Below are positions 17,567 to 46,517 of a stretch of 64,000 bases of DNA, one piece after another; positions within the stretch are counted from its first letter, which is position 1; the number at the start of each line of letters is the position of its first letter. The stretch is from an uncultured Gallionellaceae bacterium. GTDB lineage: Bacteria; Pseudomonadota; Gammaproteobacteria; Burkholderiales; Gallionellaceae. The position numbers and the translations under genes are program-made. The DNA is taken from assembly GCA_964532405.1 (NCBI GenBank), contig CAZHIC010000007.1, positions 6,721 to 70,720 on the forward strand, in the 5' to 3' direction. The notes below the pieces were generated by a model. That model was not told the origin of the DNA, searched no databases, and saw only the letters and a list, made by a program, of their open reading frames with translations.

Positions 17567-18325
17567 ATGAAATTCAGAGACATCACAGTTGGCGCGTATT
17601 CAAGGCTACACGAGCTGATTGCTTCGCGTAGTGAGCCTCCGTGCGTGCCATTTCTAGGGTACGAGTATCCGAAAGACCAGCCAGATTTCATCTATGGCTG
17701 GCAAGAGCAGGATTTCACGCGAGAGCTTGTTAATGCCTTCAATCAGTACGCCCTTTGGGTAGGTCGAGTTGGATTATGAGAGGAGGTATTGCGCGACTAC
17801 TCGGAGGACGAAGTTCTTGAACTTCGTCTTGAATTCACAACGCTCCCTCTTGATTACTGCCTTTCTTTCCCACAAAAATTTAAGTCTCGAATCGTCTACT
17901 GTGCGACTCATCTGTGCTACATGAAGGGAGTCGCCGAAAATCTTGTATCGAAGGAGTGTGCTCGCCCTGACGATAAAATAAATATGGGTGCCTTGGTCGA
18001 TGTTGCGAAGCATTGGTCTTCAGGCGCAAAGCTTATAGCAACATTAGGAGATATTGACGCACAGCAATATCGTGAATCCACGGACAACTATCGCAACAAG
18101 GCACAACACCGTCATCCGCAACGGCTGGACTACGGCCATACAACAAATGTTGTACAAAGTTTTCCGCCCGGCTATTCCGTTAGTTATACCTTCGGTGAGT
18201 CCCCTCCGTTGGTTACCAGCGATGCCTTGCCTATCTTGGCGGCGGAAGCGGATCGTATGAGAGCTGTTTTCTTTGCATATAGGGCTTTGGTTGATGAGCA
18301 CGGTAGTATCAAAAGTAAAGCCTAA
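17567..18325 (+). pseudogene. Unknown-function gene of 252 codons, interrupted by an in-frame TGA at 17777-17779
   Basis: The track ORFs 17567-17779 and 17789-18325 share a reading frame and are separated only by TGA GAG GAG GTA. The TTG at 17789 has AGGAGG only 2 nt upstream. GC is about 40%. The gene starts 8 nt after the MTase stop. I recognise no motif. Confidence 0.45.
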
Positions 18326-18397
18326 TCCATTTTACAAACACTGCCGCAACAATAATATGTATTGCCGCTAATCCCAAAACGGGACTGAAATGCGCCT

Positions 18398-18700
18398 ATG
18401 CGTGTGATCACCCTATCAACCCTTAAAGCCTTTTGGGAAAACAATCCGAGTCATCTGGATGCACGCGAGCCGTGCCTCGCGTGGTATCGGCAAGTGCTAG
18501 TAGCTGATTGGGCTTCACCCGCTGCGGTGAAGGGGAGCTTTGGTAATGCCAGCATTCTTAAAGACGGGTGGGGGGTGTTCAACATCGCAGGTAACAAATA
18601 CCGGCTGGTGGTGTGAATCAATTACACTTACCGTGTAATGTATGTTCGCTTCATCGGCACACACAAGCAGTATGACGCGATAGATGCGCAAACGATATGA
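18398..18700 (+). pseudogene. higB: HigB-family toxin with an in-frame TGA at 18614-18616
   Basis: The sequence [39 protein letters not shown] is colinear with E. coli HigB FNVGGNELRVVAMVFFESQKCYIREVMTHKEYD. The 27 codons after the stop remain in frame up to TGA 18698. Confidence 0.7.
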
Positions 18701-18709
18701 GGTGCAAAT

Positions 18710-19084
18710 ATGGACATTAAACCAATCAAGACCAAGGCGGATTACCGTGCCGCCCTCAAAGATATTGAGGGATTGATGACGGCGCGCGCCAATACGCCGG
18801 AAGGCGAGCGGCTGGATGTGCTGGTGACGCTGGTGGAAGCATACGAACGCAAGCATTATCCAATGGAGTTGCCCGATCCGATTGAGGCGATCAAGTGCCG
18901 CATGGAAAGCTTGGGGCTGAAGCCGAAAGATTTACAGCCGATGATCGGTGGACTGAATCGCGTGTATGAGGTGCTGGCTTACACGCGCCCGCTGACGCTG
19001 CCGATGATTCGCCGTTTGCATGAAGGGCTGGGCATTCCGGCGGAATGTTTGATTAAATCGTCACAGCATCAGCAGGCGGCTTGA
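18710..19084 (+). CDS. higA: HigA-family antitoxin (HTH)
   Basis: Contains IKTKADYRAALKDIEGLM...LVTLVEAYE plus a C-terminal HTH (LKPKDLQPMIGGLNRVYEVLAYTRPLTLPMIRRLHEGLGIP). It lies directly downstream of higB. Confidence 0.8.
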   Translation: MDIKPIKTKADYRAALKDIEGLMTARANTPEGERLDVLVTLVEAYERKHYPMELPDPIEAIKCRMESLGLKPKDLQPMIGGLNRVYEVLAYTRPLTLPMIRRLHEGLGIPAECLIKSSQHQQAA

Positions 19085-19115
19085 CTGAGATTTTCCGGCA
19101 ATCCGGTCTTTGGGT

Positions 19116-19298
19116 CTAGATCGCGGATACCGTCGCCAACGGTAGGAACAAAGTCAACGGTGAGTTTGGCAAAGGAATAAAACCGTGATACTGGTAAAAG
19201 GCCGCTACTTTTTTATCCTTGGCATCAACGACCATCGAGTAGCCGCCCAGATTGTACTGACGAAGGGACAGCGAAAAGGATTGACGAAGCTGGTGAAC
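19116..19298 (-). pseudogene. C-terminal stub of a GNAT-family (TacT-like) toxin
   Basis: My translation of the - strand gives ...LGGYSMVVDAKDKKVAAFYQYHGFIPLPNSPLTLFLPLATVSAI*. This is typical of the C-terminus of DUF1778-associated GNAT toxins. Upstream it is cut by stops and the IS630 remnant. Confidence 0.5.
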
Positions 19299-19299
19299 T

Positions 19300-20040
19300 C
19301 AAAACTCACCAGCGTGAGGCTGAAAAGCTTGGCATTAGCGCGGCCAGCGTAGCGCGCCAATGGCCTCAAGCCCCACCTCGCGAGGGGTTTCAAAATATCG
19401 CGCGACCCGGAATTCGTCGAGAAACTCGAAGATATTGTGGGGTTGTATTTAACCCCACCGGAACATGCCATCGTGCTGTGTTGTGATGAGAAAAGTCAGA
19501 TCCAAGCATTGGATAGAACGCAGCCCGGATTGGCACTCAAGAAGGGGGCATTCACGATGACAAGCGTCACGGCACAATGACATTATTTGCTGCACTGAAT
19601 GTGCTCGGCGGCCAAGTGATCGTCGGGTGTCAGCAACAACACCGCCATGTCGAGTGGTTGAATTTTCTGAAGAAAATTGATCGTGAAACGCCCAAAGGAA
19701 AGAGGCTAATCTGATCGTGGACAACTACGCAACACACAAACATCCGGTCGTGATAGCGTGGCTGGAAAAGCATCCGCGCTTTGTCATGCACTTCACGCCG
19801 ACATCCGCGTCCTGGCTGAACAGGGTTGAGCGTTTCTTCCGGGACATCACCACGGAACGGCTACGTCGTGGTGTGTTCACCCGCGTGCCGGAACTCATCG
19901 CGGCCATCAATGCGTACATCGGTCACCACAACACTAAACCAAAGCCTTTTATCTGGACTGCCAAGGCAAAAGATATATTGCCAAAGGTCATTCGTGCCAA
20001 CGAGCGTTTAAGTTCCAAACAGAATGCAACACTACGCTAG
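19300..20040 (+). mobile_element. IS630-family transposase pseudogene (5'-truncated, with internal deletion and frameshift)
   Basis: Fragments lie in different frames: [58 protein letters not shown] and [14 protein letters not shown]...[21 protein letters not shown]. The 19717-20040 ORF follows with DNYATHKHP...SWLNRVERFF. Confidence 0.85.
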
Positions 20041-20150
20041 AACTTGGGTTGCTACCATTGCGCAGCGGTGCGTTTACGTGTGACTTGCGGCAAGGCGTAA
20101 TGGGCGATTTGGCGGCTAGCCAATTTTGCTTTGGCTCGAACTGGGGCGGC
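20036..20150. repeat. Direct repeat copy A (contiguous)
   Basis: 20036-20060 matches 21449-21473 at 24 of 25 nt. 20061-20150 matches 22043-22132 at about 80-85%, with a 37-nt perfect core TTTGGCGGCTAGCCAATTTTGCTTTGGCTCGAACTGG. Confidence 0.85.
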
Positions 20151-20235
20151 GTGAGCCATCAAGTTTTTCTTGGCCAACTTAGCCAGGTTGAGTTACACTG
20201 CGCGCATCTTTCAAACATCTCCGAGGAGTCGAATC

Positions 20236-20481
20236 GTGCAATGCAATATGCTCGAAGCCAAAAGCCAACTTTCCAAACTGGTGCAAGCTGCATTGGCAGG
20301 CGAGGATGTCGTTATCGCCAACAAGGGCGTGCCTGTCGTCAGGTTGGTTAAAGTGGATGCACTAAGCGTTGCGCGCAAGCCCGGTGCATGGTCGGGTCTG
20401 TCCAAGGCAAAAGTAGATTGGGACTCTGCCACTACCAATGCAGCCATCGCTGAAATGCTCGGTGGAAACAAATTGCTGTGA
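20236..20481 (+). CDS. vapB: Phd/YefM-type antitoxin
   Basis: Contains MLEAKSQLSKLVQAALAGEDVVIANKGVPVVRLV. There is a GAGGAG Shine-Dalgarno 7 nt before GTG 20236; ATG 20248 is an alternative start. It overlaps the PIN toxin gene by 4 nt. Confidence 0.8.
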   Translation: MQCNMLEAKSQLSKLVQAALAGEDVVIANKGVPVVRLVKVDALSVARKPGAWSGLSKAKVDWDSATTNAAIAEMLGGNKLL

Positions 20482-20858
20482 AGCGCTATTTGATCGACAC
20501 CCACTTGGCGTACTGGTGGATGACGGCAGATGCGCGCTTGGGCAAAGCAACACAACGCATCATCGCCAAATCCGACATCGTGGTGAGCACCGCAAGTCTA
20601 TGGGAAATGGTACTGAAAAATAGCAAAGGCAAATTACCCTTGCCGCAAGGTTCGCTCACCGAACAACTCGAAGCGCAGGGGTTTATTCTGCTGCCGATTT
20701 TACCGCGACATATCGAAGCAGCGCGCAATTTGAATTGCGCCCACAACGACCCATTCGACAGATTACTTATTGCTCAGGCGCATGATGAAAGACTCACACT
20801 GCTTACGCGTGATGCGGTGATACTTGGGTTGGGGTTGAACGGGGTAGAGGAGGGATGA
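20478..20858 (+). CDS. vapC: PIN-domain toxin (VapC family)
   Basis: Contains YLIDTH..., SLWEM and NDPFDRLLIAQA. The acidic PIN residues are in order. It is 126 aa. Confidence 0.85.
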   Translation: MKRYLIDTHLAYWWMTADARLGKATQRIIAKSDIVVSTASLWEMVLKNSKGKLPLPQGSLTEQLEAQGFILLPILPRHIEAARNLNCAHNDPFDRLLIAQAHDERLTLLTRDAVILGLGLNGVEEG

Positions 20859-20873
20859 TGCAAAAACACGGGC

Positions 20874-20902
20874 AATAAAAAAGCCCGTCGCGAGGACGGG
20901 CT
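20874..20902 (-). terminator. Rho-independent terminator for the 20938-21534 gene
   Basis: On the - strand the sequence is GCCCGTC-CTCGC-GACGGGC followed by TTTTTTATT. Confidence 0.75.
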
Positions 20903-20937
20903 GGTGTGGCGCACTTCATGTTTGGAGAAGTTTCAGA

Positions 20938-21534
20938 TTATTTTTTAGCTTCGTCAGCCGGAAATTGTGTGATTTTTTGACCGTGTTCGAGAATGAAGGA
21001 AACTTCAGTTTTGCCGCTATTGTTAAGGCTGGTGTTGATGTCCACGCATATTATGTTATCACCCAAATCTGGGTTGTTTTTCGAGGTTCTCCAATAAAAT
21101 TTTCCAACTGCGGTACCTGGCATTCGTTTGTCGTCGTCGCACCCGCTAGGGTTTTCACCGGACAGTAAGGTGGTTGCTCTTCTGAAAATGCAATAGTTGC
21201 CACGTTTTTGGATGCCTACTTCCACAAAAGATGTCTCGTCATTGTTTGGGTTGTTGCTACTTACTACCACTTGAATTTCAGGGTCTTGTAACCGATAGCG
21301 TTCTACTCTCCCAGTAGTCTCGTTTTTCTTTTCGATAAACTTAGGGCGCACCGTTACTTGTGGTGGTGAATCAAACTGAAACGGTAATGTCTCGAAATAA
21401 CTTCTGAGGGCGTTATCACAATCAGAAAAATCCTTTTTATGGGACTGAGCTAGAACTTGGGTTACTACCATTGACTCTGCCATAGAAAGCCCGGAGTAAA
21501 ACAGAGCAATAATTGCGATGATTAACTTATTCAT
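20938..21534 (-). CDS. Secreted protein of unknown function (198 aa)
   Basis: It has a signal peptide (MNKLIIAIIALFYSGLSMA-ES), about 42% GC and its own terminator. I recognise no motif. Confidence 0.6.
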   Translation of the reverse strand: MNKLIIAIIALFYSGLSMAESMVVTQVLAQSHKKDFSDCDNALRSYFETLPFQFDSPPQVTVRPKFIEKKNETTGRVERYRLQDPEIQVVVSSNNPNNDETSFVEVGIQKRGNYCIFRRATTLLSGENPSGCDDDKRMPGTAVGKFYWRTSKNNPDLGDNIICVDINTSLNNSGKTEVSFILEHGQKITQFPADEAKK

Positions 21535-21556
21535 GCAGGTTTCCTTTTGAGTGTGG

Positions 21557-22237
21557 TTACAGATGTAGGGTTTTTAACTGAACGCTAAGAACTCCAGCCC
21601 AGATGATCCACATCAGATACATGTAAATACCCATCAAGGGTAGTGCAATAAGAGTGAGTACACAGCGATTCATTTGGAACTGTTGCAGTATGGTGGCAGC
21701 GCCATGCACTAGATTCCAAGTTAGCAACCCGATGCCGAATATAACGAGAATTAAAGCGAGGAAGTCATTGCACGATGGGCACAAAGATAAATTGCCCTGT
21801 AAGTGACGCGTGGCAGGTACGGCAGCCACAATGGAGGCGCAAATTATGACGTTTCGGAGGTTGTTGAAAACAAAATTGATTAACTCGTCTTGTGGAAGCT
21901 TTTTCGGGGTGGGAGACGATGATTCTGTTTCGGATTGTTTATTCGAGGGCACAGTGGCTTCCTTCTGACGTGGGCTTGGTGGGTCAATAGAATTGGCAAA
22001 ACACGGGCACTGTAAGTCAGGGGGGGGGGGGGGTATGTCAAGCGCAGTGGTGCGTTTATGCGAGGCTTGCGACGGGGTGTAATGGGTGGTTTGGCGGCTA
22101 GCCAATTTTGCTTTGGCTCGAACTGGGTCGGCATGATAAACTCGCCCGCTGTTTTTAAAGCCTTTTAGGAAGCCGCCACAGATGGAACAATTCGCTAAAG
22201 AAACACTGTCCGTTAGTCTCGAAGAGGAGATGCGCAA
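21557..22237 (-). CDS. Three-TM membrane protein; start uncertain (ATG 22237 inside gyrA, or GTG 21952)
   Basis: The C-terminal half has three hydrophobic helices: [26 protein letters not shown] and [28 protein letters not shown] 21952 has an AGGAAG Shine-Dalgarno 6 nt upstream and would give 131 aa. The long form reads through the C14 tract as PPPPP. Confidence 0.5.
22020..22033. repeat. G14 (C14 on the coding strand) homopolymer
   Basis: Counted directly: g22020 plus 13 g at 22021-22033. Confidence 0.95.
22043..22132. repeat. Direct repeat copy B, distal part (the proximal 25 nt lie at 21449-21473)
   Basis: See copy A. The two parts of copy B are separated by 569 bp. Confidence 0.85.
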
Positions 22238-24779
22238 GTCTTACCTCGAATATGCGATGAGCGTGATCGTCGGGCGTGCCTTGCCCGATGCCCGCGACGG
22301 CTTGAAGCCGGTGCATAGGCGCGTGCTGTTCGCCATGCACGAGTTATCCAATGACTGGAACCGCGCGTACAAGAAATCGGCGCGTATCGTCGGCGACGTG
22401 ATCGGTAAGTACCATCCGCACGGCGACACGGCGGTGTACGACACCATCGTGCGTATGGCGCAGGACTTTTCTCTGCGCTACCCGCTGGTGGACGGGCAGG
22501 GTAACTTCGGTTCGGTGGACGGCGATAACGCGGCGGCGATGCGTTACACCGAAATCCGCATGGCGCGCATCGCGCACGAGTTGCTGGCCGATCTGGATAA
22601 AGAAACGGTGGACTTCGGGCCGAACTACGACGGCTCCGAGCATGAGCCGCTGGTGTTCCCTGCACGTTTTCCCAATCTGTTGGTCAATGGCTCCTCCGGT
22701 ATCGCCGTGGGTATGGCGACCAACATTCCGCCGCACAATCTTTCCGAAGTGCTCGATGCCTGTTTCGCGCTGCTCAAAAATCCCGAAATCGATATCGAAG
22801 ATTTGATCGACATCGTTCCCGCGCCGGACTTTCCGACGGCGGGATTCATCTACGGTCTGGCGGGCGTGAAGGAAGGTTACCGCACCGGTCGCGGTCGCGT
22901 GGTGATGCGCGGACGCACGCACTTCGAGGATTTGGACAAGGCCGGTACGCGTCAGGCCATCATCATCGACGAGCTGCCGTATCAGGTGAACAAGGCCAAT
23001 CTGCTCATCAAGGTGGGCGAGTTGGTGCGCGAGAAGAAGATCGAGGGCATTACCGAGATTCGCGACGAGTCGGACAAGTCCGGTATGCGTGCGGTGATCG
23101 AGTTGCGGCGCGGCGAGATGCCGGAAGTTGTGCTCAATCATTTGTACAAACACACGCAGTTGCAGGACAGCTTCGGCATGAACATGGTGGCCTTGCTGGA
23201 CGGGCAACCGAAGTTGCTCAACCTGAAAGAATTCCTCGACGCGTTCCTGCGTCACCGCCGCGAAGTCGTGACGCGCCGCACTATTTTTGAACTGCGCAAA
23301 GCGCGTGAACGCGGCCACGTTTTGGAAGGTCTGGCGGTTGCGCTGTCCAATGTGGACGAGATCATCGCGCTCATCAAAGCGGCAGCGACTCCGGCTATTG
23401 CCAAGCAAGAGCTGATGGCACATGCGTGGCATTCGTCGCTGGTGGAAGAGATGTTGAGCCGCGTGAGCGATGCGTCGCGTCCTGAAACGTTGTCGCCCGA
23501 GTTTGGCATGCTGGGCAGCGGCAATCAGCGCGCTTACAAACTGTCCGATGTACAGGCGCAAGCGATTCTGGAATTGCGTCTGCAACGCCTGACGGGTCTG
23601 GAGCAAGACAAGATCGTCGGCGAATACCGTGAAGTGATGGATAAGATTAACGACCTGCTCGATATTTTGGCGAAGCCGGAGCGCGTGACGCAGATCATCA
23701 CCGACGAGCTGGTGGCGATCAAATCTCAATACGGCGACAAACGCCGCAGCGAGATCATCACCCACACGCAAGACATGAGCATGGAAGATTTTGTGACGCC
23801 GGAAGATGTGGTGGTGACGCTGTCGCACGGCGGTTACATGAAGGCGCAGAAGCTGGACGAATACCGTGCGCAGAAGCGCGGCGGACGCGGCAAGCAAGCC
23901 GCATCGACCAAGGAAGACGATTTCGTCGACAACCTGTTCATCGCCAACACGCACGATTACATCCTGTGCTTCTCCAGTCGCGGTCGCGTGTACTGGCTCA
24001 AAGTGTATGACGTGCCGCAGGGTACCCGCATCAGCCGAGGCAAGCCGATTGTGAATCTGTTGCCGCTGGAAGAGGGCGAAAAGATCAACGCCATTCTGGC
24101 GGTGAAGGAATTCCCTGAAGACAAGTTTGTGTTCTTCGCCACCACCGACGGTACGGTGAAAAAGACGCCGCTGTCCGACTTCGCCAACCCGCGCAAGGCC
24201 GGCATCATCGCCATCAATCTGGACGAGGGCGACTTCCTCATCGGCGTGGCGATCACCGACGGCAAGCACGACGTGATGCTGTTCTCCGACGGCGGCAAGG
24301 CCGTGCGCTTCGACGAAAACGATGTGCGTTCGATGGGCCGTGTGTCGCGCGGTGTGCGCGGTATGCGACTCACCAAGGGCGGCAAAGTCATCGCGCTGCT
24401 GGTGGCCGAAAACGAACAGCAGACAGTGCTGACCGCGACCGAAAACGGTTACGGCAAGCGCACGCCTATCGTCGAGTACACCCGCCATGGTCGCGGCACG
24501 CAGGGCATGATGGCGATTCAGACTTCCGAGCGTAACGGCAAGGTGGTGGCGGCGACGCTGGTCAGCACCGAAGACGAGATCATGCTGATCGGCACCAACG
24601 GCGTGCTGATCCGCACCCGCGTCAAAGAGATTCGCGAGATGAGCCGCGCTACACAGGGCGTGACGCTGATCAATCTGGAGAAGGGCGAGAAGTTGGCCGG
24701 ATTGAGCCGTATCGCCGAGACGGAAGATGACGGCGCGGAAGACCTTTCGGACGATGTTGCAGACGACGACGCAGAGTAA
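22182..24779 (+). CDS. gyrA: DNA gyrase subunit A
   Basis: Contains [35 protein letters not shown]...AAMRYTE. It is 865 aa with an acidic tail. Confidence 0.98.
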
Positions 24780-33440: not shown

Positions 33441-34247
33441 ATGTCCATACAGGTTCTTGATACAACAGCTTGGAGAGAGTTTCGTGGCTCACCTGACATC
33501 AAAGGTTTGAATAAGACAACACATTTGGCAAAAATTGCAGATGCGAGTGGCAAGTTGCATGATTGCTATGTCAAGCTGTTGGAACCAAATACTCCTGCAC
33601 TTCTATGTGAGGCAATTGGCTGGCTCATTGCGCGTGCATCTGGTGTTGCGTGTTCGCCTTTTGCATGCATTGTGTTCATACCGTTGGATGAGCTACGAAA
33701 GAATATGAAATTGCCTGAATGGTTAGATAGGTATGATGTTTACCCAGCCTGGTGTTCAGAAGTGATTCGAGGGAAAACGGTCATCCAAGTTCATAAATGG
33801 TTTTTGTTGGCGGCCAGCAAAAAATGTTTAAGGAGCAAAGATGCTAGAGCAATGGCGGCAATGGATGTATGGGTTGACAACAGGGATCGAAACTATGGGA
33901 ACGTTGTTCGTGTAAGTAGTGGTAATTACGTTTCGATTGACCATGAAACAGTGTTGCATGATTTGTTGTGGATACCAGTAGGTAAACACTTTGCGAGAAG
34001 AAGTTTGGTTGATATGGCCGTCCAGCATTTGTCGCAAGATGATCGTGATCAATTTTTAGTGGATATGGCTACTACCGCAGAACTTCACCAAAATGGGTTC
34101 AATGTGTCGAAGAAGCACGTTGTGGAGATCATTGAAAAAATCGTTCATCCGTCAAAAATCCAGCAGTTTGTTCCGTTGGTATGTGACTTTCTGGAGTCAC
34201 GTGCAAAGCCGGGATGGCTAGCCAATGAGATAGGAGTGATCGTATGA
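33441..34247 (+). CDS. HipA / PI3-4-kinase-like phosphotransferase-fold protein (268 aa)
   Basis: It shows an ordered kinase-like pattern: CYVKLLE (Lys), LLCEAIGWL (Glu), MDVWVDNRDRNYGNVV (D-x4-N catalytic loop) and VSIDHETV (metal-binding Asp). GC is about 40%. Confidence 0.6.
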   Translation: MSIQVLDTTAWREFRGSPDIKGLNKTTHLAKIADASGKLHDCYVKLLEPNTPALLCEAIGWLIARASGVACSPFACIVFIPLDELRKNMKLPEWLDRYDVYPAWCSEVIRGKTVIQVHKWFLLAASKKCLRSKDARAMAAMDVWVDNRDRNYGNVVRVSSGNYVSIDHETVLHDLLWIPVGKHFARRSLVDMAVQHLSQDDRDQFLVDMATTAELHQNGFNVSKKHVVEIIEKIVHPSKIQQFVPLVCDFLESRAKPGWLANEIGVIV

Positions 34248-46431: not shown

Positions 46432-46517
46432 TCACGCGGAGGCGCGGAGACGCAGAGAAAAAACAAAGCGGGCTGGAAGCCTATATTCTCCGCGCCCCCC
46501 CCCGCGTCTCCGCGTGA
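46432..46517. repeat. REP/MITE (TCACGCGGAG...CTCCGCGTGA type) with an internal C9 tract
   Basis: The left arm is 46432-46452 and the right arm GCGTCTCCGCGTGA is 46504-46517. C9 lies at 46495-46503. Confidence 0.65.

Follow-up and report, generated by a model that had tools for sequence, protein, structure and literature searches.

This study concerns a run of 14 consecutive C residues (14 G on the plus strand, positions 22020-22033) on the minus strand of a 64,000-nucleotide (nt) stretch of contig CAZHIC010000007.1 from an uncultured Gallionellaceae bacterium; the whole stretch is hereafter called the window. Since the run lies in the spacer of a conserved promoter-like module and its length changes in otherwise identical DNA, it most likely represents a slippage-driven expression switch of the kind known from pathogens. 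We consider it probable that the tract is the hypermutable spacer of a Gallionellaceae-specific promoter module driving an acquired low-GC cassette, and that its length modulates the expression of this cassette. In the proposed mechanism, the module would transcribe the cassette leftwards on the minus strand, giving a membrane protein of 131 amino acids (aa) and a secreted protein of 198 aa, and the cassette itself would have been horizontally acquired. Slipped-strand mispairing at replication would alter the C count and, with it, how far the conserved upstream element lies from the -10 hexamer and the rotational phase of the two relative to each other. Promoter strength would consequently differ among cells, the module acting as a stochastic switch or dimmer whose states are heritable yet reversible. 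The activity of the module as a promoter, the control of expression by tract length, and the assignment of ON lengths are points that we infer.

Promoter-like anatomy and the module family

The position and length of the run given in the original prediction were confirmed by a sequence check, and only one other G/C run of at least 9 nt, at 46495-46503, was found in the 64-kb window; matches to G9 numbered 7 as compared with a shuffle mean of 0.38. Read on the minus strand from 22052 down to 21998, the run is embedded in the order CACCACTGCGC-TTGACA-TA-C14-TGACT-TACAGT-GCCCGTG-TTTT, whose elements are summarized in Table 1. Position counts over 22 aligned members of the family described below revealed that the CTG.GC positions of the 11-nt block are nearly invariant, and this block may either bind an activator or mark where the module ends upstream. 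Transcription is predicted to start near 22002, and AGGAAG-N5-GTG 21952 follows about 50 nt past the module end or the predicted start. A search of the tract region against Rfam gave no match at E up to 1, and its fold z-score of -0.37 indicated no stable structure.

Two other promoter-like sites of the window, both read by eye, carry TAnAnT hexamers with 18-nt spacers, i.e., TTGGCC-18-TACACT-GCGCGC in front of phd-vapC and TTGGCT-18-TAAACT in front of gyrA, the latter stretch being kept upstream of gyrA in relatives without the island. The tract element thus resembles a promoter of this local type in which the C run has lengthened the spacer to 21 nt.

Table 1. Positions of the module, the cassette genes, and adjoining features in the window
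Feature	Position	Strand	Basis or remark
C14 homopolymer, variable-length part of the putative promoter spacer	22020-22033	-	Sequence; C13, C12, and C8 alleles elsewhere
TTGACA, perfect -35-type hexamer	22036-22041	-	Invariant in the 22 aligned members and at all 23 tabulated loci
Conserved 11-nt block CACCACTGCGC, abutting TTGACA upstream	22042-22052	-	Position counts
TACAGT, -10-type hexamer (TAnAnT), 21 nt from TTGACA	22009-22014	-	Sequence; equivalent hexamer at all 23 loci
Putative GC-rich discriminator GCCCGTG, then TTTT	21998-22008	-	Family-wide pattern of hexamer, 7-10 GC-rich nt, and T run
Shine-Dalgarno AGGAAG, 5 nt before GTG 21952	21958-21963	-	AAGGAA before GTG at the matching place in the L082 orthologue
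131-aa membrane protein gene, cassette gene 1	21557-21952	-	Start GTG 21952; about 44% GC
198-aa protein gene with signal peptide, cassette gene 2	20938-21534	-	Open reading frame and translation
Strong intrinsic terminator closing the cassette	20882-20902	-	Terminator prediction; the convergent vapC ends just past it
Divergent gyrA promoter-like site, TTGGCT-18 nt-TAAACT, TG two bases before the hexamer	22113-22142	+	Outside the switch

The original prediction had offered three scenarios for the tract. In one of them the gene starts at GTG 21952 behind an AGGAAG Shine-Dalgarno sequence, with the tract 68 nt upstream in the promoter or leader; both the sequence (21963-21958, with 5 nt between) and the distance were right, and this scenario is the one supported by the placement of the tract between a perfect TTGACA and TACAGT, by the recurrence of the module at 23 loci, by the preservation of the GTG start and the N-terminus in an orthologue of 75% overall identity (L082), and by the tract lengths that vary among assemblies of otherwise identical sequence. 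As the leader of this orthologue differs by a 7-nt indel, the leader is non-coding.

The other two scenarios placed the tract within a reading frame, where it would act as a translational frameshift switch. The frame entering from 22237 is indeed open for 226 codons through the tract, which it reads as PPPPP, and its start lies inside gyrA as had been claimed, but this start is TTG rather than ATG; the alternative frame from ATG 22134, to be fused by a change in tract length, terminates at 21880 in a different frame after 84 codons, exactly as described. However, the start at 22237 lies inside gyrA on the opposite strand, the C13 allele of the same strain breaks the TTG 22237 frame, and the C12 and C8 orthologues keep neither of the two frames, each of the C13, C12, and C8 alleles causing a shift, while the GTG and the N-terminus are conserved across the leader indel. 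The same module, moreover, precedes unrelated genes at variable distances. Hence, a frameshift switch appeared very improbable, and both scenarios were abandoned.

The gyrA start (ATG 22182) is 149 nt from the end of the tract, in agreement with the distance of about 150 bp originally given. The proximity itself is incidental, since other copies of the module adjoin sodB, an SSF transporter gene, a methyltransferase-like gene, or toxin-antitoxin genes. In another species of the genus the module also lies upstream of gyrA, and the contig ends exactly at the tract.

In the same genome, a second copy of the module was found at contig C1 (C1:19333-19343, a C11 tract) with near-identical flanks, facing another low-GC pair of secreted and membrane proteins. 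A pattern search allowing 2 mismatches detected the motif in 20 of 301 family genomes as compared with 2 control matches, and an exact scan of one genome per species over 185,579 species returned 18 matches, 14 of them in metagenome-assembled genomes (MAGs) of the Gallionellaceae, i.e., Sideroxydans, Gallionella, and unnamed genera, whereas none of the 4 matches outside the family resembled the module. With a few further members supplied by a scan of JGI metagenomes, the tabulated total came to 23 loci from at least three Gallionellaceae genera, whose tracts range from C6 to C23. The module is restricted to the Gallionellaceae and has a constant orientation towards the cassette.

At every locus, 4-11 variable bases separate the C run from a TAnAnT-type hexamer, behind which come 7-10 GC-rich bases and a T run, so that the consensus can be written as CACCGCTGMGC-TTGACA-T(A)-Cn-4..11 nt-TAnAnT-GC-rich-TTTT. 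The layout, with the homopolymer between the -35 and -10 elements, was the same at all 23 loci, where the -10 assignments are our own, made by alignment on the pattern of hexamer, GC-rich bases, and T run. The sequence CACCGCTGMGCTTGACA was conserved at the 23 loci and linked to the tract, and among the 9 exact matches to CCGCTGNGCTTGACAT in 317 family genomes, a C tract followed in 8. The idea that the block also exists without the tract was rejected, as its one-mismatch matches mostly fell in conserved coding sequence and were attributable to chance. One further match to the 10-mer TATGTCAAGC (reverse complement GCTTGACATA) is present in the window at 33558-33580, inside the second foreign cassette downstream of gyrA and with no C run beside it; about 0.1 chance matches are expected.

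At nearly every locus with a contig extending past the tract, the downstream side had a GC content of 35-47% and the upstream side one of 48-60%, and a ribosome-binding site and a start codon were located 30-60 nt after the -10 hexamer; the exception was locus L014. The cargo differs from locus to locus and includes secreted and membrane protein pairs, small proteins followed by membrane-tailed proteins, Sel1-repeat proteins, a zinc-ribbon protein, and lipoproteins, with toxin-antitoxin modules as the usual neighbours of the cassettes.

Tract length variation and spacer geometry

Tract lengths were compared among independent assemblies encoding exactly the same cassette protein, by means of assembly consensus calls and not read counts. 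As anticipated by the original prediction, lengths were found to differ where the DNA was otherwise identical. At the window locus, the MAG has C14 and a Logan contig from run ERR4904393 has C13, with 0 mismatches and one gap in 2004 nt; a contig from run ERR3478687, with an identical flank, stops 34 nt short of the tract. At locus L009, which adjoins sodB, 3 assemblies give C11 and 5 give C12; their flanks (97 + 1100 nt) show 0 mismatches, and both lengths are present in neighbouring runs of the same studies. Locus L018 has C10 in 2 assemblies and C11 in 1, the flanks shown being the same.

Between species, the orthologous gyrA-upstream locus carries C12 in the species of 75% overall identity (L082) and C8 in a relative that is 92-95% identical (L083, L084), while an identity of about 92% is kept across the orthologues in the -35 hexamer, the -10 hexamer, and the initial 30 nt of the leader, as it is in the discriminator stretch of L082. 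This identity of about 92%, as compared with 75% overall, suggested that the promoter is under constraint, and the tract appears to be the most changeable site of a region whose surroundings are constrained. In some species the tract is interrupted, as in C6-A-C3-A-C3 or C7 followed by TCCCTTCGAC, and these interrupted forms keep a total spacer of 19 nt.

The run might instead be an artefact of sequencing or assembly, such as the poly-G of two-colour chemistry. Two other long G/C runs of the genome (C14:40075 and C43:13518) do adjoin N gaps and look like scaffolding artefacts, and contigs of several assemblies break or bear junk at such tracts. The tract of the window, in contrast, lies inside a contig with unique flanks. 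More than one assembler retrieved it, from separate runs and studies, and many species carry it at orthologous and paralogous loci, which makes an artefact extremely improbable. Further long runs of the genome are located at C34:21645-21662 (G18), C13:60216-60226 (C11), and C1:24652-24662 (G11); the one on contig C13 reads TTGACG-C11-GACAAT and does not match the module spacing.

In many assemblies, contigs end exactly at or inside the C/G tracts, as observed at L006 (G012:C55 end), L021, L022, L024, L078-L081, and L089. Some of these contigs bear low-complexity junk or Nextera adapter sequence, and one contig end shows C23. The C/G tracts are a recurrent cause of MAG fragmentation.

The spacer between TTGACA and the -10 hexamer was 14 nt at 2 loci, 15 nt at 3, 16 nt at 1, 19 nt at 7, 20 nt at 8, and 21 nt at 2, and a spacer of 17 or 18 nt was found at none of the 23 (P about 0.001-0.003 under a uniform 14-21 model); at L020, another choice of hexamer would reduce the spacer from 20 to 18 nt. 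The gap at 17-18 nt suggests that the length is under selection.

Alternatively, the tract could be unstable but devoid of a regulatory role, drifting neutrally within a weak or defunct promoter on the border of the acquired island. In favour of such drift, all the observed spacers (14-16 and 19-21 nt) lie outside the sigma-70 optimum, the within-strain changes (21/20 and 19/20) do not reach this optimum, and orphan cassettes are easily lost, the C8 relative having deleted its membrane-protein gene. Neutral drift, however, would not leave a gap exactly at 17-18 nt, nor does it agree with the persistence of long uninterrupted tracts at many loci in at least three genera, with the practically complete absence of the conserved block without a tract, or with the high identity of the -35 hexamer, the -10 hexamer, and the leader in the L082 orthologue. 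We consider this explanation rather unlikely.

Several points nevertheless weigh against a length-dependent switch. A standard sigma-70 promoter scan with 16-18 nt spacers makes no call at the tract element, because the C run stretches its spacer to 21 nt. A plain -35/-10 model would make all the observed alleles weak, and the change between C13 and C14 would connect two OFF states. A 1-nt consensus difference in a C/G run of 11-14 nt could partly be an Illumina or assembler error, and three loci exhibited no variation at all, namely G000 C1 (C11 in 4 assemblies, 100% identical), L050 (C11 in 4 assemblies), and L025 (C9 in 2 assemblies), the flanks shown for the latter two being the same. Finally, no benefit of switching can be named, as the cassette proteins match no known family.

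As a plain sigma-70 promoter, the present C14 allele with its 21-nt spacer would be OFF or weak. With spacers of 19-21 nt, on the other hand, the 17-nt conserved block has its centre at about -40 to -42 and, by our own count, the junction of the TA and the C run comes to lie 17 nt upstream of the -10 hexamer; the C14 allele could be near-optimal if an activator binds the block near -41 while the -35 zone is occupied by the C run. Two options fit the observed distribution. In option (a), the element would be a plain sigma-70 promoter that is ON only at 17-18 nt, and costly expression would keep the majority allele OFF on either side. In option (b), the block would be an activator-binding site and the -35 zone would be taken up by the C run, an arrangement known from Bordetella fim2, fim3, and fimX. 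Both options imply that the length matters, and they differ in which alleles are ON; the interrupted tracts with a 19-nt total lean slightly towards option (b).

Cassette genes and island edges

The two cassette genes have a GC content of about 44% as compared with 55% for the genome. The membrane protein gene was also called at 131 aa in independent contigs, and its product is 62% identical over the full length to that of the L082 orthologue; no Pfam or PADLOC family explains this protein. The 198-aa protein has, among 5.8 billion proteins, just 2 relatives besides its own copy, both in the gyrA-upstream context. Among ten cassette proteins from six loci, no fimbrial or other relevant Pfam family was detected, and PADLOC gave nothing relevant for the cassette proteins.

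Three of the cassette proteins, namely those of L009/L038 (168 aa), L017 (361 aa), and L056 (371 aa), are otherwise different and have a common C-terminal segment with the pattern CF(V/L)(A/L)TA...D.PTV..(L/F)R.(V/F)RD..L......G..F...YY.HG.K.A. This segment comes after Sel1 repeats in two of the proteins and after zinc ribbons in a third, and had no Pfam match in L009 and L017, the two proteins scanned.

Another explanation is that block and tract mainly mark the end of a mobile island, or a site at which it recombines, the island carrying cassettes and toxin-antitoxin genes and the likeness to a promoter being secondary. The module always lies at a boundary between core and low-GC DNA, conservation stops about 11 nt beyond TTGACA, and toxin-antitoxin modules usually flank the cassettes; furthermore, a 95-nt direct repeat brackets the island of the window, and the C1 island adjoins a duplicated 5' fragment of a neighbouring gene. 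On the other hand, a second copy of the module or its halves was absent from the far end of the 12 islands examined, and no integrase was seen beside the loci inspected, although no systematic integrase search was made. The TTGACA and TAnAnT hexamers, together with the fixed orientation and the distance to the ribosome-binding site and start codon, are what a promoter needs, and we know of no precedent for a homopolymer of 6-23 nt inside a recombinase core site, which likewise speaks against this explanation. We regard a recombination site as improbable.

Related readings were also rejected. A Xer/dif-like site, whose arms the module loosely recalls (GCGCATAA...TTATGTTAA), was discarded because no dif-like 28-mer within 6 mismatches was present genome-wide and because a centre of 10-19 nt is unfit. 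The terminal repeat of the Tn3 family (GGGGT.TG.C..GC.CAGTGG), to which there is a vague likeness, does not account for conservation that ends at about 20 nt and a G run that varies from 6 to 23. An integron-like cassette platform was dismissed in that no recurrent repeat was found at the far cassette ends, with the same limit on the integrase search.

The copies of the 95-nt repeat (86% identical) are located at 20060-20154 and 22042-22136 of the window, bracket phd-vapC and the cassette, and include the conserved region in front of gyrA, ending shortly before its -10 hexamer. On contig C1 (C1:19465-19580 compared with C1:20229 onward), the 5' end of the neighbouring radical-SAM-like gene has a truncated duplicate, which sits between the module and a BrnT/BrnA-like pair. 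Both islands look like single-crossover (Campbell-type) insertions of circles carrying a piece of the target 5' region.

Two shorter repeats were also observed. A 25-nt sequence at 20036-20060, at the right end of a decayed IS630 and just after the transposase stop, recurs with 24 of 25 positions at 21449-21473, in the signal-peptide coding region of the 198-aa gene; compared with the second copy, the one at 20036-20060 looks like a 568-nt deletion that took out the membrane-protein gene together with the promoter. The two genes of the cassette also lie between direct repeats of 15 nt, GCAAAA(A)CACGGGCA, at 20861-20875, just past the terminator, and at 21996-22010, within the promoter discriminator. 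Neither the orthologues nor the other loci showed this repeat, which may be due to chance.

The relative represented by L083 and L084 (runs SRR22388222 and SRR22387934), aligned to window positions 18089-22255, exhibits the same context of HigB, IS630, and phd-vapC at 92-95% identity. A deletion running from one ribosome-binding-site region to the other has removed its membrane-protein gene, and its secreted protein, shortened to 150 aa, stands behind the C8 promoter.

Relation to known slippage switches

Promoter slippage switches are textbook features of host-adapted pathogens such as Neisseria, Bordetella, Haemophilus, and Helicobacter, whereas the Gallionellaceae are free-living, neutrophilic iron oxidisers known largely from metagenomes. 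In Neisseria porA, opc, and fetA, the promoter hexamers are separated, or replaced, by a G/C homopolymer of about 9-14 nt, whose slippage shifts both spacing and transcription; the ON alleles of porA and fetA have spacers of 17-18 nt. In a limited full-text literature search, we found no report of phase variation in the Gallionellaceae themselves.

Among the known systems, the closest is the Bordetella fim promoter family, followed by Neisseria porA, opc, and fetA, and by Helicobacter pylori sabA. In Bordetella fim2, fim3, and fimX, transcription is set by a conserved box together with a C-stretch of 7-22; loss of a single C is enough to abolish Fim3 production, and the -35 element is CCCCCC, with the activator site co-centric with it (PMC1891110, PMC10172299, PMC7250471). 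The fim promoters of Bordetella parapertussis likewise carry interrupted tracts (PMC1891110).

Like the fim2, fim3, fimX, and fimN promoters with their BvgA-activated 'fim box', the Gallionellaceae module is betaproteobacterial, is shared by several promoters of a genome, and combines box, poly-C, and -10 hexamer. The tract ranges are C7-C22 in Bordetella and C6-C23 in the Gallionellaceae, with lengths differing between strains in both, and the interrupted tracts C6TC3 and C9TC8 of the former have a counterpart in C6AC3AC3 of the latter. The Gallionellaceae box differs in that it contains a perfect TTGACA and in that no BvgA-like activator is known for it. The cargo consists of orphan cassettes (membrane, secreted, Sel1-repeat, and zinc-ribbon proteins) on low-GC islands rather than fimbrial subunits, and the host is a free-living iron oxidiser and not a pathogen. 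A single C switches the Bordetella fim promoters, whereas for the Gallionellaceae we infer the dependence on length.

Phase variation through the promoter spacer has been described for Neisseria meningitidis porA (poly-G), opc, and fetA (poly-C) in a survey of repeats (PMC5084427). As in these genes, the homopolymer lies in the putative promoter spacer and is polymorphic in length, by consensus calls, among otherwise identical assemblies. In contrast to porA and fetA, however, the 23 loci include no spacer of 17-18 nt, one locus having 16 nt and the rest 14-15 or 19-21 nt, and the Neisseria loci are single genes with individual promoters whereas the Gallionellaceae loci share a module. In H. 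pylori sabA, a poly-T 'rheostat' next to the -35 element tunes the output in steps instead of by a strict on/off change (PMC4081817). The sabA T tract lies upstream of the -35 element and acts via DNA bending and alpha-subunit contacts, unlike the Gallionellaceae tract, which is placed between two conserved elements.

The module therefore differs from the known systems in its host, in its cargo of unrelated cassettes on mobile low-GC islands, and in its unusual spacing, while the mechanism would be the one common to them. As a tentative extension of the slippage switch proposed here, the working geometry might be an activator-dependent one of 19-21 nt, in which the C run occupies the -35 zone, in place of the plain 17-nt sigma-70 spacing. 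The module might then serve as a portable promoter platform for acquired orphan cassettes, mostly of envelope proteins beside toxin-antitoxin genes, by which iron oxidisers would bet-hedge on accessory surface or defence functions much as mucosal pathogens do with adhesins.

For the reading of MAGs it matters that contigs often break at such tracts and that consensus lengths would hide subpopulations. The missing spacers of 17-18 nt pose a concrete and testable question of promoter geometry. If the tract does act as a switch, populations of the Gallionellaceae would keep cell-to-cell diversity in envelope or conflict genes, and this would bear on phage-host dynamics in iron-rich groundwater and sediments.

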